Shown here one piece after another: positions 3,535 to 64,000 of a stretch of 64,000 nucleotides of DNA. Every line of letters begins with the position of its first letter. The first letter of the stretch is position 1. The notes beneath the pieces are model-generated. The model was not told where the DNA came from and searched no databases. It saw nothing but the letters and a program-made list of their open reading frames with translations. Source of the stretch: Escherichia coli (lineage in GTDB: Bacteria > Pseudomonadota > Gammaproteobacteria > Enterobacterales > Enterobacteriaceae); assembly GCF_013122565.1 (NCBI RefSeq), contig NZ_CP053258.1; one strand, 5' to 3'. Position numbers and translations under genes: made by a program.

Positions 3535-4323
3535 TTAGCAGGTACGCAACCAGGTCAACGAATCACGGTACGCCTGGGCAGGATCTTCTGCCCGGATACG
3601 CCCTTCATACACCACATAACCCTGATAGTTATCGGCGCGCAGCTGTTCAAACAGCGCGTGGAAATCGAGGGTGCCGCTGCCCGGCTGGTAACGATGGTTA
3701 TCGGCAATATGCACATGACCGAGCAAGTCGCGGTTGTCATGCAGCGCCTGCGCCAGGTTATCTTCTTCGATGTTCATGTGATAGAAATCGCCGATAATCT
3801 GCACATGTTTAAGATTGTTTTCGACGATGTAACGACGAGCATCGGCGAGGGTGTTGATCATATGATCCTGATAGCGGTTTAACGGTTCGAGATACACCAC
3901 GGTTCCGGTACGCGCGGCGACCTGTTCCAGTACGCGCAGGGAATCACTCACCATTTTGCGGTCGCCGTCCAGGCTACGCGGCGAGGTCATCGGCGGTAAG
4001 CGGAAGGTAAACATGCCCCACGCTGCCGGAACGACGATACCTTTACCCCCCACTTCTGCCAGCGCTTCGAGAATGCGTTCGATCTGCTTTAAGCCATTAA
4101 GACGACGCTCTTCGATAAAGTCACCAATCCAGCCGTCATAGCCGCCGCAGGCGGTGGTCACCGGTAAACCGGTTTCTTTGATCGCCGCTTTGACTTCTTC
4201 GATGTTGTTGACCAGCAGTTTGCCGTCAATCTCAAAACCATCGAAGCCCATCTCTTTGATATAACGAAATTTCTCCAGAATATTTTCCGGGAAGAACGCC
4301 TGATTCTGTGTGCCTATTTTCAT
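3535..4323 (-). CDS. ycjR: sugar phosphate isomerase/epimerase (xylose-isomerase-like TIM barrel)
   Basis: Track ORF 3535..4452 trimmed to internal Met (MKIGTQNQAFF) to match the 262-aa protein. Confidence 0.85.
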   Translation of the reverse strand: MKIGTQNQAFFPENILEKFRYIKEMGFDGFEIDGKLLVNNIEEVKAAIKETGLPVTTACGGYDGWIGDFIEERRLNGLKQIERILEALAEVGGKGIVVPAAWGMFTFRLPPMTSPRSLDGDRKMVSDSLRVLEQVAARTGTVVYLEPLNRYQDHMINTLADARRYIVENNLKHVQIIGDFYHMNIEEDNLAQALHDNRDLLGHVHIADNHRYQPGSGTLDFHALFEQLRADNYQGYVVYEGRIRAEDPAQAYRDSLTWLRTC

Positions 4324-4340
4324 TTTTTCATTCCTTTGAA

Positions 4341-5393
4341 TTAAAACGTGACGCCCATTTTGATGCTCTGTTCCGGATGCTGATCGACATACTGCATGTA
4401 GCTTTCCGGGCTGTTGGCAAAGGTCACTACCGGGTCGATTAAATCTTCGCAATTGAGATAACCGTTCATCAGCAGTTTCCAGCAGGTTTCTTCAATACGC
4501 TTACGGCTCCAGCGCGGATAATCCGGGTTCGGTTCACTGCACGCGCGAGAGAAGACAATTTTGGCGTTATTGAAATGCGCTTCGCGTCCGAGGTTAAAAC
4601 CTTCAGCAAACGGTTTAGCAAACGCGACATAGGAGATGGTGCCACCGTAAGCCAGGCCGCGCAGCGCCGACTGCAGCGCGTCGGCGTAACCGCTGGTTTC
4701 GATAATCACATCGGCACCCTGCTTGCCGGTCAGCGTTTTGATCTCTTTGCCTACGTCAGTGCCAATGGGATTAAGGCAGAAATCCGCACCGTGACGACGA
4801 GCAATATCACAACGATGGGCAATAGGATCGACGCCAATTACCACCGACGCGCCAGCGCGTTTAGCCAATTGGATGGCAATTTGACCGATCGCGCCAAGCC
4901 CTACCACCACTACAAAATCCCCTACGCGTACGTTGGCATCGCGAACGCCACTCATGGCGAACTGCGCCGGGTCGTAGCAGACGGCGTTTTTCCAGGAGCT
5001 GCCTTCCGGCATTTTGCGCAGCTTGTAGTTATTCACTGCGTTAATGATGACCGTCTCGGAGAGCGGGCCGTAGCCGCATACGCTGTCGCCCACCGCGTAG
5101 TCGGTAACGTCGCTGCCGCACTCGATAATGTCGCCAACCACCATGTTGCCAAGCTGGAATTTGCCAAACTCAATGCCGCGCGGCGCATCTGCCGGACGCG
5201 GGGTGAACATCTGCCACTCGCCGTTAAAGTCTTCATCGATAAACGGGCTGGCGGCGCGGAAGTCGACCACTTCCGTTCCGTGTTTCGGTGCGCCGAAACG
5301 CACGCGGATCTTCACTTCATTGGCTAAAATCGCCCGATCTTCATACTCAACCAGCGCAGCAACGCGCGGTGCTGTGGCTACTAACTTTTTCAT
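4341..5393 (-). CDS. ycjQ: zinc-type medium-chain alcohol/sugar dehydrogenase
   Basis: 350-aa ORF; GLGAIGQ nucleotide-binding motif. Confidence 0.9.
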   Translation of the reverse strand: MKKLVATAPRVAALVEYEDRAILANEVKIRVRFGAPKHGTEVVDFRAASPFIDEDFNGEWQMFTPRPADAPRGIEFGKFQLGNMVVGDIIECGSDVTDYAVGDSVCGYGPLSETVIINAVNNYKLRKMPEGSSWKNAVCYDPAQFAMSGVRDANVRVGDFVVVVGLGAIGQIAIQLAKRAGASVVIGVDPIAHRCDIARRHGADFCLNPIGTDVGKEIKTLTGKQGADVIIETSGYADALQSALRGLAYGGTISYVAFAKPFAEGFNLGREAHFNNAKIVFSRACSEPNPDYPRWSRKRIEETCWKLLMNGYLNCEDLIDPVVTFANSPESYMQYVDQHPEQSIKMGVTF

Positions 5394-5423
5394 GTAAAAC
5401 TCCTTGTTAAGAAACTGGCCGCT

Positions 5424-6266
5424 TTAGCCCTTCACGCCACCGGCGGTCAAACCACTCTTAATAAAACGTTCCGAAAGCGCATACATAATCACCACCGGCA
5501 ATGCGGTCACCAGCGAGGCCGCCATCATGCGTCCCCAGATGTAATCAGGCGTACTGAACAGCGCGTTCAGGCCCACTGGTAAGGTGAAATTGCTGGCGCT
5601 GGAGAGGAAAATCGACGCAAACAGATAGTCGTTCCACGCCACCATAAAGCAGTAGACGAACACCGATATCAGCCCGGACATCGCCAACGGCACGGTGATA
5701 CGGAAGATAATTTGCAGACGGTTGAGGCCATCCATCATCGCCGCTTCTTCGATCTCATCAGGGATGGTGTCGAAGTAACTTTTCAGCATAAACACGGCGG
5801 TGGGCAGAGTTTGCGTCACCATGGTAATGATCAGCGCCATCTCGGTGTCGTAAATGCCAAGCGCGGTGATGATTTTGAACAGCGGCACCACCAGCAAAAT
5901 GCCAGAGAACATATACACCGTGTAAAAGCTGGCGTTGATGGTCATCCGGCCTTTAAAGCGCAGGCGAGAAAGCGCGTAAGCTCCGAGAATGCCGAGAAAT
6001 ACCGCCACCACGGATGAAACCACCGACACCACCATGCTGTTACGGAAGTAGTCGACAAACGGGAAAATCACCGGGTTAAAAATGTCGACATAATGCTCCA
6101 GCGTCCACTGTTGCGGCAGCAGCGTAGGATGCAGCGAGATCGCCTCTTTTGCGCTCTTGAACGAGGTCATCAGCATCACAAAAAACGGAAACAGCGTGAT
6201 GATGAGAAACAGCGCCAGCCCGCAGTAAAATCCGATACGACTGAGTGTGCGTTTATTTGTTGCCAT
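5424..6266 (-). CDS. ycjP: ABC transporter permease (sugar)
   Basis: 280-aa hydrophobic ORF, MalG-like. Confidence 0.9.
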   Translation of the reverse strand: MATNKRTLSRIGFYCGLALFLIITLFPFFVMLMTSFKSAKEAISLHPTLLPQQWTLEHYVDIFNPVIFPFVDYFRNSMVVSVVSSVVAVFLGILGAYALSRLRFKGRMTINASFYTVYMFSGILLVVPLFKIITALGIYDTEMALIITMVTQTLPTAVFMLKSYFDTIPDEIEEAAMMDGLNRLQIIFRITVPLAMSGLISVFVYCFMVAWNDYLFASIFLSSASNFTLPVGLNALFSTPDYIWGRMMAASLVTALPVVIMYALSERFIKSGLTAGGVKG

Positions 6267-7134
6267 TGAGGTTCACCCGTTTCCTGGTCAGAAGAATGAC
6301 AGCGAAAATAATGATGAAGAGCACCACCGAGATCGCCGCCGCTTTCCCTAAGTCATTAAAGGCAAAGGCAGTTTTGTAGAGATAGACACCGAGAATATCG
6401 ACCTTGGTCGTCAGCAGATAAACGTCAGCGAACATGTAGAACATCCAGATGGTGCGCAGGGTCACCACCGTCGCCAGGACCGGCATAATTGCGGGCAGCG
6501 TGACGATGCGAAACCGCTGCCAGGCATTAGCGCCATCCATCTCTGCCGCTTCGTACAGCGATTTGTCGATGGTCTGCAAAATCGCCAGAAACGAGATAAA
6601 GGCATACGGGAAGTAGCGCCAGATGGCGAACAGCACCACCAGCACAAAGCTACTGCCCGGATTATCGAACCACAGCGGTGCCTGCTCGTAGAGATGCAGA
6701 AGATCGACGCCGAGGTAGTTCACAATGCCGTAGCCGTTGTTGAACATGTATTTCCAGGCGAACACCAGCGAAATGGACGGCGTTACGTAGGAGAGGATCA
6801 CCAGCGAACGCGCGGTTTTGCGCAGGCGGAACTCGCGGTTGAAAAACATCGCCACCGCCAGCCCGAGCACGGTGCTGCCCGCCACCACCAGCGCGGTATA
6901 CCAGACCGTCATCCACAGCGAATGCCAGAAGCCGGGATCGGAGAGGATACGCACATAGTTGCTCACCCCAACAAACGTTGACTCGATGTTGGGATTGAGC
7001 GGCAGACGTAAAAAACTGATTTCGATATTCGACACCATCGGCCACGCCACCAGACCGCCCAGCAGTAATAAGCTGGGCGCGAGAAGCAGCAGCGCAAAGA
7101 GCATATCGGAACGACCTGAAAAAAGCCTGTTCAT
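6253..7134 (-). CDS. ycjO: ABC transporter permease (sugar)
   Basis: 293-aa hydrophobic ORF, MalF-like; overlaps ycjP start. Confidence 0.9.
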   Translation of the reverse strand: MNRLFSGRSDMLFALLLLAPSLLLLGGLVAWPMVSNIEISFLRLPLNPNIESTFVGVSNYVRILSDPGFWHSLWMTVWYTALVVAGSTVLGLAVAMFFNREFRLRKTARSLVILSYVTPSISLVFAWKYMFNNGYGIVNYLGVDLLHLYEQAPLWFDNPGSSFVLVVLFAIWRYFPYAFISFLAILQTIDKSLYEAAEMDGANAWQRFRIVTLPAIMPVLATVVTLRTIWMFYMFADVYLLTTKVDILGVYLYKTAFAFNDLGKAAAISVVLFIIIFAVILLTRKRVNLNGNK

Positions 7135-7154
7135 TGCGGATTCCTGTCCTGGGT

Positions 7155-8447
7155 TTAGTGCTGTTCGATCAGTTCATCCAGTTTTTTCTGGCTCGCTTGC
7201 AGCGTAGTAGAGAGATCGGCTTTACCCACGGTGACGTTATGCACCATTGAACTCACCACGCCAGAACCCGTCACATCACCCATGCGGGTAAAGTTTTTAT
7301 CCCCTACTGCGCCAAAGACCTGAATATTTGGCAGTTCACCGATTAGCTGATTCGGTAGTTCACCCAGCGCCTTAATAACGTCGTTGTCTTTCCAGGTGGC
7401 GGTAGTGACAACCGCTTTGTTCACCGGCAGTGCCGCGCCTGGCGACATCATCACCCAGTCGGCAATGTTGTCCGCCTGCTCCATAAAGGTGACGAATTTT
7501 TCTGCTGCTTCCGTTTCTTCGGTCTTTTGTCCGGCGGTAATGGTCAGCGAGGTCAACATGCCGTAGACGGCAGAGTTTTTCTCGGTTGGCACCACGAAAC
7601 CGACGTTTTTCGGGTCGCCTTCTTTAATCACAGCCGGAAGGATATAGGTGGAGTAAATCGCCATCGGCGCGGTGCCGTTCATAAAGGCGTCTTTCACTTC
7701 CATGATGTCGTTAGAACCCGGCATGGTGTTGGCAGCAAGGTCGCGGTAATAGGTCAGCGCCTGCATCATCTCTGGTGTATCAAGGGTGATTTTGCCTTCG
7801 GCGTTAAAGACGTTGGCCTGGTTGGATAACGCAAACTGGGAGAAGGATTGTTCCGTCAGCACGCTTTCTGCCGTAGGCAGCGCAATACCGTATTTTTTAT
7901 TCGCCGGGTCATTCAGTTTCTGTGCAACGTCCAGCAGCTGCTGCCAGTTTTTCGGCTCCTCCAGCCCGACTTTTGCCAGCACATCTTTGCGATACCAGAT
8001 GCCGCCAATCCAGGCGCTGACGGGAACACCGGTCCAGGCACTCCCATCTTCGGTGCGCACAATACGCAGTACGCCATCGTAAAACGCGCCTTCACCAACG
8101 TTGCTGATGACCGTGGCAACCGCCTTGCGATCGATAAGCTGCTCTTTGTCCATAACTTTGGCGTAGTCATGGCTGGTTTCGATCACTTCCGGCAGCGAAC
8201 CGCTACGTGAAAGGGTAATGACTTTAGTGTTATAGGCATCTTCTTCCACGGGCACTTGCTTAACGGTGATGCCCGGGTTTTCTTTTTCAAAACGGGCAAT
8301 CAATTTACTGATAACTGCCTGACGCTCCTGCTCCACCGAAGAATGCATAAATTCGATGGATACATTCGTTTTATTTTCTTCTTTACAGCCAGAAATCAGG
8401 GCGCAGGAAACCAGTGCTGATAACAGCACGATTTTTGATTTAATCAT
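7155..8447 (-). CDS. ycjN: periplasmic sugar-binding lipoprotein of ABC transporter
   Basis: 430-aa ORF; signal peptide with lipobox LISGC. Confidence 0.9.
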   Translation of the reverse strand: MIKSKIVLLSALVSCALISGCKEENKTNVSIEFMHSSVEQERQAVISKLIARFEKENPGITVKQVPVEEDAYNTKVITLSRSGSLPEVIETSHDYAKVMDKEQLIDRKAVATVISNVGEGAFYDGVLRIVRTEDGSAWTGVPVSAWIGGIWYRKDVLAKVGLEEPKNWQQLLDVAQKLNDPANKKYGIALPTAESVLTEQSFSQFALSNQANVFNAEGKITLDTPEMMQALTYYRDLAANTMPGSNDIMEVKDAFMNGTAPMAIYSTYILPAVIKEGDPKNVGFVVPTEKNSAVYGMLTSLTITAGQKTEETEAAEKFVTFMEQADNIADWVMMSPGAALPVNKAVVTTATWKDNDVIKALGELPNQLIGELPNIQVFGAVGDKNFTRMGDVTGSGVVSSMVHNVTVGKADLSTTLQASQKKLDELIEQH

Positions 8448-60975: not shown

Positions 60976-61781
60976 TGGAACGCTACGAATCTCTGTTTGC
61001 CCAGTTGAAGGAGCGCAAAGAAGGCGCATTCGTTCCTTTCGTCACGCTCGGTGATCCGGGCATTGAGCAGTCGCTGAAAATTATCGATGCGCTAATTGAA
61101 GCCGGTGCTGACGCGCTTGAGTTAGGCATCCCCTTCTCCGACCCACTGGCAGATGGCCCGACGATTCAAAACGCCACACTGCGTGCCTTTGCGGCAGGTG
61201 TGACCCCGGCTCAGTGCTTTGAGATGCTGGCACTCATTCGCCAGAAACACCCTACCATTCCCATTGGCCTGCTGATGTATGCCAACCTGGTGTTTAACAA
61301 AGGCATTGATGAGTTTTATGCCGCGTGCGAGAAAGTCGGCGTCGATTCGGTGCTGGTTGCCGATGTGCCAGTAGAAGAATCCGCGCCTTTCCGTCAGGCC
61401 GCGTTGCGTCATAATGTCGCACCTATCTTCATCTGCCCGCCAAATGCCGATGACGACCTGCTGCGCCAGATAGCCTCTTATGGTCGTGGTTACACCTATT
61501 TATTGTCGCGTGCGGGCGTGACCGGCGCAGAAAACCGCGCCGCGTTACCCCTCAATCATCTGGTTGCGAAGCTGAAAGAGTACAACGCTGCACCTCCATT
61601 GCAGGGATTTGGTATTTCCGCCCCGGATCAGGTAAAAGCAGCGATTGACGCAGGAGCTGCGGGCGCGATTTCTGGTTCAGCCATTGTTAAAATCATCGAG
61701 CAACATATTAATGAGCCAGAGAAAATGCTGGCGGCACTGAAAGTTTTTGTACAACCGATGAAAGCAGCGACGCGCAGTTAA
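60975..61781 (+). CDS. trpA: tryptophan synthase alpha chain
   Basis: 268-aa [31 protein letters not shown]; TGATG coupling with trpB. Confidence 0.97.
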
Positions 61782-61786
61782 TCCCC

Positions 61787-61815
61787 CAGCCGCCAGTTCC
61801 GCTGGCGGCATTTTA
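61787..61815 (+). terminator. trp operon terminator
   Basis: CAGCCGCCAG-ttcc-GCTGGCGGC followed by ATTTT. Confidence 0.85.
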
Positions 61816-62161
61816 ACTTTCTTTAACGAAGCCGGAAAAATCCTAAATTCATTTATTATTTATTTTTTTACCGTTTCGCTTACCCCTGTCGAACGTCAAC
61901 TTACGTCATTTTTCCGCCCAACAGTAATATAATCAAACAAATTAGTCCCGCAACATAACACCAGTAAAATCAATAATTTTCTCTAAGTCACTTATTCTTC
62001 AGACAATTGTTAATATATCAAGAAGGTTCCTCATAATATATTTTCCCACTTTCTTCTCGTTACGCTTAATTTGACTAATTTTCATTAGCGACTAATTTTA
62101 ATGAGTGTCGACACACAACACTCATATTAATGAAACAATGCAACGCAACGGGAGAAATAAC

Positions 62162-62341
62162 ATGACCGAACATCGTGGTGGTTCAGGAAATTTCGCCGAA
62201 GACCGTGAGAAGGCATCCGACGCAGGCCGTAAAGGCGGTCAGCATAGCGGCGGTAATTTTAAAAATGATCCGCAACGCGCATCTGAAGCGGGTAAAAAAG
62301 GCGGTCAACAAAGCGGTGGTAATAAATCAGGCAAGTCCTGA
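62162..62341 (+). CDS. yciG: small glycine-rich stress protein with internal tandem repeat
   Basis: Track ORF trimmed to MTEHRGGSGNF (59 aa); GGAGA SD upstream; two copies of an about 20-aa unit. Confidence 0.85.
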   Translation: MTEHRGGSGNFAEDREKASDAGRKGGQHSGGNFKNDPQRASEAGKKGGQQSGGNKSGKS

Positions 62342-62426
62342 TTCACCGTTAATTATTAATATCAGCTGATAAAGATAATTGCATCTGCGGGCCGTATGGC
62401 TCGCAGTGATTTCATTGGAGAAAAAT

Positions 62427-62927
62427 ATGAATATGAAGACCATTGAAGATGTATTTATTCACCTGCTTTCAGATACCTACAGCGCAGAAAAACAATTAAC
62501 CCGTGCACTGGCAAAACTCGCTAGAGCAACATCAAACGAAAAATTAAGTCAGGCTTTTCATGCGCACCTCGAGGAAACTCATGGACAGATTGAACGAATT
62601 GATCAAGTTGTGGAATCTGAATCGAACCTGAAAATTAAGCGCATGAAATGTGTGGCAATGGAAGGTCTCATTGAAGAAGCTAATGAGGTCATCGAAAGCA
62701 CCGAGAAAAACGAAGTGCGTGATGCCGCACTGATTGCCGCTGCACAGAAAGTCGAGCACTATGAGATCGCCAGTTACGGGACCTTAGCGACGCTGGCTGA
62801 ACAATTAGGTTACCGTAAAGCAGCTAAACTTCTGAAAGAAACTCTTGAAGAAGAAAAGGCTACCGACATCAAACTGACTGATCTGGCCCTTAATAACGTA
62901 AATAAGAAAGCCGAAAATAAAGCCTGA
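62427..62927 (+). CDS. yciF: ferritin-like DUF892 stress protein
   Basis: Track ORF trimmed to MNMKTIEDVFIHLL (166 aa). Confidence 0.9.
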   Translation: MNMKTIEDVFIHLLSDTYSAEKQLTRALAKLARATSNEKLSQAFHAHLEETHGQIERIDQVVESESNLKIKRMKCVAMEGLIEEANEVIESTEKNEVRDAALIAAAQKVEHYEIASYGTLATLAEQLGYRKAAKLLKETLEEEKATDIKLTDLALNNVNKKAENKA

Positions 62928-62972
62928 AATATGAACTTTAACTTTTAGTCATTTTATAAAGAGGACATTTTC

Positions 62973-63479
62973 ATGAATCGTATTGAACATTATCATGACT
63001 GGTTACGTGACGCCCACGCAATGGAAAAGCAAGCCGAATCAATGCTTGAATCCATGGCCAGCCGTATAGATAATTATCCTGAACTACGCGCTCGTATCGA
63101 ACAACATCTTAGTGAAACCAAAAACCAGATTGTTCAACTGGAAACTATTCTTGATCGTAATGACATTTCACGTTCAGTCATTAAAGATTCCATGAGTAAA
63201 ATGGCTGCGCTTGGGCAGTCAATCGGTGGTATCTTCCCTTCTGATGAAATAGTTAAAGGCTCTATTAGCGGATATGTCTTCGAGCAATTTGAAATCGCCT
63301 GTTACACCTCACTATTAGCAGCAGCAAAAAATGCCGGTGATACAGCTTCAATTCCAACCATCGAAGCGATTTTAAATGAGGAAAAGCAAATGGCCGACTG
63401 GCTGATTCAGCATATTCCGCAAACAACTGAGAAATTTTTAATTCGCTCTGAAACTGAAGGCGTAGAAGCGAAGAAATAA
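62973..63479 (+). CDS. yciE: ferritin-like DUF892 stress protein (YciF paralogue)
   Basis: 168-aa ORF MNRIEHYHDWLRDAHAMEKQAE. Confidence 0.9.
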   Translation: MNRIEHYHDWLRDAHAMEKQAESMLESMASRIDNYPELRARIEQHLSETKNQIVQLETILDRNDISRSVIKDSMSKMAALGQSIGGIFPSDEIVKGSISGYVFEQFEIACYTSLLAAAKNAGDTASIPTIEAILNEEKQMADWLIQHIPQTTEKFLIRSETEGVEAKK

Positions 63480-63503
63480 TACCCTTTATGCCATGTCCTT
63501 ATT

Positions 63504-63531
63504 GACCCCGTATATTACGGGGTCGTTTTTG
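63504..63531. terminator. bidirectional terminator between yciE and ompW
   Basis: GACCCCG-tatatta-CGGGGTC followed by GTTTTT. Confidence 0.85.
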
Positions 63532-63538
63532 TGCGGAA

Positions 63539-64000
63539 TTAAAAACGATATCCTGCTGAGAACATAAACACCCACGGATCGAGGCGTACGCTATCATGTT
63601 GCTGTGCACCGCCCAGCTTATAATTGGCGGTGGTATCGATATCCATGTACCAGACTGACATGTTAACCAACCAGTCACGGTTAATCAGATAATCAACCCC
63701 CACCTGCCCGGCAGCTCCCCAGGAATCTTTCAGACTGAGATCGGAAAGCCCCGCCTCTTTGCCATGATCGTTAAATCCATTATCAAAGAAGGTGGTGTAG
63801 TTAATACCTGCCCCAACGTAAGGACGGAATTTGCTGCTGGCATCACCAAAATACCACTGCGCCATCAGTGTTGGCGGCAGATGATGAACGGTTGCAATAT
63901 CGCCGGTCGCCCGGGTGCCGATTTTATGGCGGAACGGCGTCGCTGCCAGTAATTCCACACCAATGTTGTCGGTCGCCATATAAGTAAACGTCAAGCCCAG
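63539..64000 (-). CDS. ompW: outer membrane protein W, C-terminal part (gene runs off window end)
   Basis: ORF ends in the beta-barrel terminal motif SAGYRF; N-terminus and signal peptide lie beyond position 64000. Confidence 0.9.
   Translation of the reverse strand: MGLTFTYMATDNIGVELLAATPFRHKIGTRATGDIATVHHLPPTLMAQWYFGDASSKFRPYVGAGINYTTFFDNGFNDHGKEAGLSDLSLKDSWGAAGQVGVDYLINRDWLVNMSVWYMDIDTTANYKLGGAQQHDSVRLDPWVFMFSAGYRF

Follow-up and report, generated by a model that had tools for sequence, protein, structure and literature searches.

The KGG family is already established in the literature, and so is much about its Escherichia coli member YciG: that it is disordered, that it is a hydrophilin, how it is regulated and that it protects in vitro. 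[quoted passage not shown] 2019, as cited in PMC7161692. Stress-induced expression is a feature of the family (PMC9262955, PMC7161692). The yciG operon depends on RpoS, is repressed by H-NS and is activated by McbR/YncC at the yciG promoter (PMC7705038, PMC5437024, bioRxiv 10.1101/2025.05.13.653802), control by RpoS, H-NS and McbR being also backed by PMC6064147. It is moreover a candidate for osmotic induction (bioRxiv 10.1101/2025.05.13.653802). Acid induction has been reported as well, and growth at pH 4.5 was impaired only when two or three KGG genes were deleted (bioRxiv 10.64898/2026.04.09.717482).

YciG is counted among the hydrophilins of E. coli (PMC5437024, PMC3983491). Hydrophilins form a physicochemical class, not a homology family, and the definition of Garay-Arroyo et al. 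2000, as quoted in PMC3983491, asks for more than 6% Gly and a hydrophilicity index above 1. According to the summary of Reyes et al. 2005 in PMC3983491, LDH that was vacuum-dried together with YciG in a molar ratio of 1:1 was protected to an extent comparable to 100 mM trehalose. As for the partner genes, Salmonella YciF reportedly binds iron and acts as a ferroxidase (bioRxiv 10.1101/2023.01.20.524870), which makes partly outdated the earlier remark, in a sequence-only reading of this DNA, that the function of the cluster is still unclear.

Here, we examined the yciG locus in a window of 64,000 nucleotides of E. coli DNA, the whole stretch that was analysed. The order of genes is trpB-trpA, a terminator hairpin, yciG, yciF, yciE, a terminator and the convergent ompW, the hairpin behind trpA standing at 61789-61809, 5' of yciG. 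An identical annotated order of trpA, yciG, yciF, yciE and ompW is found in RefSeq E. coli genomes. The features of the locus are as follows.

61810..62149, + strand: AT-rich regulatory region of yciG, ~30-36% GC (from composition; trp, for comparison, ~55% GC)
62150..62154, + strand: Shine-Dalgarno sequence GGGAG, 7 nt 5' of the yciG ATG (read off the sequence; invariant in the aligned E. coli strains)
62162..62341, + strand: yciG coding sequence, KGG-repeat general stress protein (from its translation, the PF10685 match and annotated E. coli genomes)
62171..62188, + strand: stub of a third, N-terminally truncated unit, residues 4-9, HRGGSG (from the family alignment)
62189..62254, + strand: repeat unit 1, residues 10-31, NFAEDREKASDAGRKGGQHSGG (from the Pfam KGG stretch and the offset-22 self-match)
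62255..62320, + strand: repeat unit 2, residues 32-53, NFKNDPQRASEAGKKGGQQSGG (from the second Pfam KGG stretch and the DNA direct repeat)
62321..62338, + strand: C-terminal tail NKSGKS, which with the preceding GG reads GGNKSGKS
62385..62406, + strand: GC-rich hairpin between yciG and yciF (from a terminator-like call and its folding energy)
62427..62927, + strand: yciF, DUF892 ferritin-like, second gene of the operon (PF05974, 4.7e-52; RefSeq annotation)
62973..63479, + strand: yciE, DUF892 ferritin-like, third gene of the operon (PF05974, 4.7e-51; RefSeq annotation)
63503..63525, + strand: terminator-like hairpin with T-run that closes the operon, opposite the 3' end of ompW (from a terminator scan)

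The gene consists of 59 codons plus TGA (ATG at 62162, TGA at 62339-62341) and encodes MTEHRGGSGNFAEDREKASDAGRKGGQHSGGNFKNDPQRASEAGKKGGQQSGGNKSGKS. Its identity as yciG, proposed earlier, is borne out by a match of 58/59 residues to RefSeq WP_000807651, the common E. coli YciG, in the same trpA-yciG-yciF-yciE-ompW context, and its position at the head of yciGFE holds as well, yciF and yciE coming next on the + strand. Compared to K-12 YciG (P21361; WP_000807651), it is the same gene, with the same synteny and the same length of 180 nt. The single difference from the common protein is Thr for Ala at residue 2, accompanied by three synonymous changes. The Thr2 allele is in the minority, with only 15 E. 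coli records reaching >=99% identity over the coding sequence, and the exact Thr2 sequence is found in public E. coli assemblies. NCBIfam gave no match for YciG, YciF or YciE.

The mass computed from this ATG for the Ala2 allele, after loss of Met, is 5867.79 Da, and intact E. coli YciG was measured in aged colonies by top-down mass spectrometry at 5867.78 Da, likewise without Met (PMC5594050). Because the published and the computed masses agree, the start codon and the production of the protein are confirmed on the Ala2 form. An upstream GTG start at 62105, which would open a 78-aa reading frame, was rejected: the Shine-Dalgarno sequence precedes the ATG at 62162, homologues begin with M[AT][EN]HRGG, and the mass fits a 58-residue product lacking Met. 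Two overlapping reading frames, at 62175-62369 on the + strand and at 62183-62311 on the - strand, were set aside as by-products of the repeat that are absent from annotations.

Compared with itself, YciG gave its best diagonal at an offset of 22 aa (66 nt), with a BLOSUM62 segment score of 91. Shuffled sequences of the same composition reached a mean of 31.3 (sd 6.1, maximum 69), and none of 5000 attained 91; the internal tandem repeat that had been noticed in the 59-aa product is thus real. It is mirrored in the DNA, as had also been claimed, by a direct repeat of 45 nt (62213-62257 vs 62279-62323) that is 78% identical at a spacing of 66 nt. When identity at the 66-nt offset was broken down by codon position, the two copies agreed at 22/37 first, 23/37 second and 11/37 third positions. 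Given that third positions agree at only 11/37, the DNA similarity is what amino-acid conservation alone gives. The pattern points to an old duplication and disfavours recent slippage, conversion or DNA homogenisation.

The repeat could still be read as a low-complexity or compositional artefact that means nothing functionally, since the composition of YciG is strongly biased and Tandem Repeats Finder made no call over 62000-62500. That miss is due to there being only ~2 diverged copies, which is below its threshold, and so gives no evidence against the repeat. Such an artefact is hard to reconcile with the absence of any comparable self-match among the 5000 composition-preserving shuffles, with a unit that is kept position by position across proteobacteria at a fixed period of 22 aa, and with the two matches of the Pfam repeat model to YciG. 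We therefore give this explanation practically no weight.

Pfam PF10685 (KGG repeat) matches YciG in two stretches with E = 7.9e-18 and 64.8 bits, against a cutoff of 20.4, the better stretch covering residues 10-30 and profile positions 1-22. The two units of YciG share NFxxDxxxASxAGxKGGQxSGG. Preceding them, HRGGSG lines up with (K)GGQxSGG, the tail of complete units, in longer homologues such as P0183, P0242, P0201 and P0248. As judged by these alignments, the architecture of YciG is a stub, two full 22-residue units and a short tail. The earlier description of two tandem units therefore stands, with the length of each corrected from about 20 to 22 residues. Likewise, the period of the units first delimited (19-40 and 41-59) was right and their phase was not, the Pfam register being 10-31 and 32-53. 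The former register overlooked the NFxxDxxxA start of the unit, where NFAEDREKA (10-18) matches NFKNDPQRA (32-40).

Homologues were collected by a word-indexed search, which yielded 1930 relatives, and by HMMER run exhaustively over 1.84 billion cluster representatives, which yielded 598 clusters at E <= 0.001. Within the family, successive G-x-[KR]-G-G cores lie 22 aa apart in 102/136 cases, and the consensus of 67 distinct units is NFANDPxRASEAGRKGGQxSxG, with A9, G13, K15, G16 and G17 invariant. Copy number and neighbourhood were then surveyed in the best 80 of 377+ genomic relatives from GTDB species-representative genomes. Two full units are present in 73 of these best 80 of 377+ loci (Enterobacterales and most Pseudomonas). 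The other seven of the same best 80 carry 3-6 units and differ by whole units: three in Methylobacterium, four in Erwinia persicina, Aureimonas and Pseudomonas vlassakiae, five in Acidocella, and six in Alcanivorax and Billgrantia. The highest counts in the survey are thus those of Alcanivorax, Billgrantia and Acidocella. The sequence-only reading had made its claim depend on whether the units are conserved among homologues; their sequence and 22-aa period are kept, copy number is two in most orthologues, and elsewhere it changes by whole units. These observations document a conserved unit alongside a copy number that varies by whole units.

In E. coli itself, every full-length yciG match is a single piece of 180 nt, found in 4590/5426 genomes. 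The yciGFE cluster is missing from ~15% of complete E. coli genomes (e.g., ST131), where only the paralogue ymdF is kept, and is therefore dispensable; ymdF is present in essentially all E. coli genomes. YmdF has the same two-unit architecture, with 85% protein identity to YciG over residues 1-53 and 81% identity at the nucleotide level.

The composition of YciG is that of a hydrophilin. The protein contains 23.7% Gly and only 3 hydrophobic residues in 59, its GRAVY is -1.72, and it carries 11 Lys+Arg against 7 Asp+Glu, with 2 His and no Cys. Its Gly content of 23.7% and its hydrophilicity index of 1.72 both exceed the published thresholds. AlphaFold2, run on an alignment of 28 sequences, returned a mean pLDDT of 59.7 and a pTM of 0.29 with no residue >=90, and placed one low-confidence helix in each unit (residues 15-24 and 37-49). 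A PDB sequence search with YciG found no relative at E <= 10. Low pLDDT, few hydrophobic residues and the lack of a PDB relative by sequence thus agree as proxies for disorder. Both the disordered and the hydrophilin-like character suggested earlier are in this way supported, by the composition and the low-confidence model in the first case and by the published thresholds in the second, and both had already been published (PMC5437024 for the latter).

Upstream of yciG, a 14-nt motif, ACTAATTTTAATGA, occurs in three copies at 62074, 62091 and 62120, and a (GCAAC)2 repeat at 62140-62149 is expanded to (GCAAC)4 in strain KN13-4. A scan of this region for promoter consensus gave 6 matches vs 4.6 expected, no better than shuffles, including a weak sigma-70-like match at 62010-62037. 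An Rfam scan of 61700-63600 returned only a sub-threshold match to sroD at the trpA terminator (19.5 bits vs a gathering score of 50, E = 0.88), which was dismissed for that reason.

The spacer between yciG and yciF holds a hairpin with a folding energy of -18.6 kcal/mol (z = -3.4). Its ten pairs are kept in six genera of Enterobacterales, with changes on both sides at four pairs. In the other genera it is followed by a U-run, and here only by TGATTTCATT. The hairpin is a candidate partial intrinsic terminator or stabiliser; a partial terminator at this place might yield more yciG than yciFE transcript.

Across species, 23/80 loci (best 80 of 377+ relatives) have a DUF892 homologue no further than 4 kb from the KGG gene, in most cases on the same strand and 75-330 nt downstream of it, the alphaproteobacterium Acidocella included. 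There, the KGG gene with five units is followed by DUF892, DUF4142 and a heme catalase. In P. vlassakiae, a Mn catalase comes after the KGG gene with four units and DUF892 lies beside them, and in Alcanivorax DUF892 and GlgE are found near the KGG gene. A Mn catalase stands downstream of the KGG gene in 6 of the best 80 of 377+ relatives. By gene order, the recurring module of KGG protein, putative ferroxidase and catalase extends the Salmonella yciGFE-katN arrangement to Alphaproteobacteria. Compared to that arrangement, the present operon has no katN downstream, and no catalase gene occurs within this window. No DUF892 gene accompanies the ymdF-type paralogues or most other family members, which stand alone.

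Overall, YciG is probably a disordered hydrophilin that protects other proteins, in stoichiometric amounts, from water, pH or temperature stress. According to published work, its expression is turned on in stationary phase and by acid or osmotic stress, the AT-rich promoter being silenced by H-NS and dependent on RpoS, and it shields other proteins stoichiometrically when water is limiting, in the fashion of LEA-type hydrophilins. Each unit would contribute a charged segment with a weak tendency to form a helix (D-x-x-[RK]-A-S-[ED]-A-G-[RK]-K) and a flexible Gly/Ser/Asn linker (GGQxSGGNF), which may act as a module, and the number of repeats would set the length and valency of the shield, not a folded domain. 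YciG may be redundant with its paralogue YmdF and would act alongside the co-transcribed ferroxidase-type YciF and YciE.

Some observations sit uneasily with a general protectant. The protection result, as summarised in PMC3983491, was obtained in vitro. Motility phenotypes and a reported interaction with YhjH/PdeH hint at specific partners, and five invariant positions per unit exceed what a composition-driven shield needs. As to mutant phenotypes, single KGG deletions have weak or strain-dependent effects (PMC7161692; bioRxiv 10.64898/2026.04.09.717482), and in the accessible literature we found no desiccation phenotype of E. coli yciG.

Two other roles have to be weighed against the protectant. 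YciG might be a dedicated accessory that binds, stabilises, scaffolds or regulates YciF and YciE (and KatN where present). The DUF892 neighbours that KGG genes have in their 4-kb flanks in 23/80 loci (best 80 of 377+) speak for this, as do the KGG/DUF892/catalase clusters of Acidocella and P. vlassakiae, the Mn catalase downstream in 6 loci and the report that Salmonella YciF is a ferroxidase (bioRxiv 10.1101/2023.01.20.524870). However, the 85%-identical YmdF and most family members have no DUF892 neighbour, and co-location may reflect shared stress regulation alone. Physical interaction of YciG with YciF or YciE is not reported in the accessible literature, YciG has no obvious cluster of metal ligands (2 His, no Cys), and the conserved yciG-yciF hairpin suggests that expression is partly uncoupled. 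We regard such an accessory role as unlikely. In a broader proposal, the KGG protein would not be a free-standing general protectant but the disordered partner in an ancient KGG/DUF892 ferroxidase/catalase module, present in alpha- as well as gammaproteobacteria, the hairpin would adjust how much shield is made per enzyme, and whole-unit copy number (2 to 6) would tune the protein to habitat. As a whole this is speculative, and we would not expect it to hold; if true, YciG would have a specific client, the ferroxidase/catalase pair, in desiccation-linked oxidative stress. The KGG-DUF892-catalase linkage or the yciG-yciF hairpin could help explain how bacterial hydrophilins are deployed.

YciG might also be a regulatory disordered protein that folds on partners such as the c-di-GMP phosphodiesterase YhjH/PdeH or flagellar regulators, and so would link the stress response to motility and biofilm. 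Among the partners of YhjH returned by a bacterial two-hybrid genomic screen in S. Paratyphi A, yciG came up three times, yet with the S. Typhimurium allele no interaction appeared, though YciG is identical in both serovars (bioRxiv 10.64898/2026.06.04.730116). The motility defects of Salmonella KGG-gene mutants attributed to Oguri 2019 in PMC7161692 were not reproduced in S. Enteritidis (PMC7161692). Biofilm formation is defective in ymdF and PA2146 mutants (PMC9262955), the strictly conserved A-G-x-K-G-G core would fit a recognition motif, and the AlphaFold model shows a latent helix in each unit. A range of 2-6 units, however, is more typical of a bulk or valency function than of a single defined interface. 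A regulatory role seems to us quite unlikely.

Nucleotide binding has been attributed to KGG proteins through a Walker A motif, a claim that stems from Pfam family text quoted in PMC9262955 and that is repeated in PMC7161692. In YciG, GGNKSGKS at the C-terminus does fit the pattern G-x4-GK[ST]. Such a pattern is present in 37/277 collected homologues, all of the GGNKSGKS type and only in E. coli-type YciG, and in 0/143 representatives of 50%-identity clusters, whereas the orthologues of the neighbouring genera Citrobacter, Enterobacter and Kosakonia have tails of the SHGGGRKSDNS type instead. Moreover, the motif stands at the extreme C-terminus with no helix after it and no strand before it, in a low-confidence and probably disordered chain, and a chance match is easy in a sequence of 24% Gly, 12% Lys and 12% Ser. 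That YciG binds nucleotides in this way is in our judgement highly improbable, and we take GGNKSGKS for a chance pattern in a Gly/Lys/Ser-rich tail, not a property of the KGG family, so that homologues lacking it belong to the family all the same. This corrects an annotation error that has been propagated, the 'Walker A motif' not being conserved. YciG was accordingly not placed among the P-loop NTPases, the pattern being unconserved and C-terminal in a low-confidence chain and no Pfam NTPase match having been found.

The favoured protectant can be compared with described groups. Within the PF10685 family ('stress-induced bacterial acidophilic repeat motif'; 'con-10 family general stress protein' at NCBI), which includes Pseudomonas PA2146, YciG has two full matches to the 22-position model. 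It shares with the family the A-G-x-K-G-G core, the hydrophilicity and the stress-linked expression (PMC9262955, PMC7161692), with no essential difference.

Bacillus subtilis GsiB is also a general-stress protein built of tandem, hydrophilic, KGG-containing units. It depends on sigma-B, unlike the RpoS-dependent YciG. A GsiB-like sequence, used as an approximate query, matched PF10685 at 3.2e-38 with 5 units and LEA_5 at 7.4e-15, which offers a lead more than a test. GsiB differs from YciG in its period of 20 aa, its inter-core EATSxNHDKEFYQEIG and its >=5 units. The database protein P0211 combines the two types, with one GsiB-type unit (HDKEFYQEIGSKGG) followed by YciG-type units; its KGG match is 1.2e-28 and its LEA_5 match, 0.003, lies below the cutoff. 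A homology link between GsiB and group 1 LEA proteins was published by Stacy & Aalen 1998, as listed in PMC3691520.

Plant group 1 LEA proteins (Em/Em6; PF00477, LEA_5) are, like YciG, small, Gly-rich, disordered hydrophilins with a repeated motif that contains G[RK]KGG. LEA_5 (PF00477) gave no match to YciG at E <= 1, and hhalign of the YciG unit profile against an Em6-like LEA_5 sequence reached 8% probability over 11 columns, the GRKGG core only; on these two results YciG was kept out of the LEA_5 family. Through the GsiB-type units, YciG is probably a distant relative of the group 1 LEA/GsiB proteins, and by analogy it plausibly works in the same way as the plant group 1 LEA proteins.

yciG is a presence/absence polymorphism in Escherichia coli: the full-length gene was found in 4590 of 5426 complete genomes, the remaining ones carrying ymdF only. 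Presence or absence was inspected at the E. coli loci L002 (EC2001), L004 (VREC0864) and L005 (ST131); among the strains inspected, IS1 is inserted between trpA and yciG in one and replaces yciGFE in another. Moreover, yciF is annotated as frameshifted in strain 4621 and yciE in KN13-4 (L001 3646-4144 and L003 2702-3207; few genomes inspected). These few genomes hint that yciGFE is decaying in some E. coli lineages, with yciG remaining intact.

The window carries an uncommon yciG allele. The best match among complete E. coli genomes to the 649 nt at 61782-62430 reached 98.3%, only 15 E. coli records showed at least 99% identity over the coding sequence (62162-62341), and residue 2 of YciG is Thr instead of the usual Ala. 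The following elements were found around the gene:

62074-62087, 62091-62104 and 62120-62133: three copies, 86-100% identical, of the 14-nt AT-rich motif ACTAATTTTAATGA
62140-62149: pentanucleotide repeat (GCAAC)2, directly 5' of the yciG Shine-Dalgarno sequence
62351-62380: AT-rich palindrome AATTATTAATATCAG/CTGATAAAGATAATT with adjacent, 80% complementary arms, directly 3' of the yciG stop codon
62385-62406: GC-rich hairpin in the yciG-yciF spacer, 44 nt 3' of the yciG stop and 20 nt 5' of the yciF start

At the site of the (GCAAC)2 repeat, E. coli KN13-4 possesses four copies (a 10-nt insertion), and the 5' leader of yciG is thus polymorphic in length. The three motif copies all lie within 90 nt 5' of the yciG start and overlap a short palindrome around GTCGAC (62102-62117); they may be sites for a regulator. 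Binding of McbR/YncC to the yciG promoter has been reported in work on the regulation of this operon (PMC7705038, PMC5437024, bioRxiv 10.1101/2025.05.13.653802). The trpA-yciG intergenic region (61800-62100) has a GC content of 30-36%, and the entire operon one of 33-48%, compared to ~55% for the trp genes. This low GC content of yciGFE and its upstream region is consistent with the reported silencing by H-NS and with a horizontal origin.

Loci of Enterobacter, Citrobacter and Kosakonia preserve the structure of the spacer hairpin; of its 10 pairs, 4 show compensatory changes. In these three genera it is followed on its 3' side by a U-run, where the window has only TGATTTCATT. The hairpin is a candidate partial terminator or attenuator, which would uncouple the expression of yciG from that of yciFE. 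As judged by eye, the right half of the adjacent palindrome (62351-62380) appears to resemble a GATAAT-type iron-box half-site.

The operon of the window contains no catalase. Among 80 KGG-gene loci from species-representative genomes, DUF892 ferritin-like genes adjoin the KGG-repeat gene in 23; catalases also recur beside it, namely a Mn catalase in 6 loci and a heme catalase in Acidocella. Loci with such neighbours include:

L084 (Acidocella), 4001-7990
L085 (Pseudomonas vlassakiae), 3914-5916
L046 (Methylobacterium)
L024, L038, L053 and L071, further loci

The KGG-DUF892-catalase module extends to Alphaproteobacteria.
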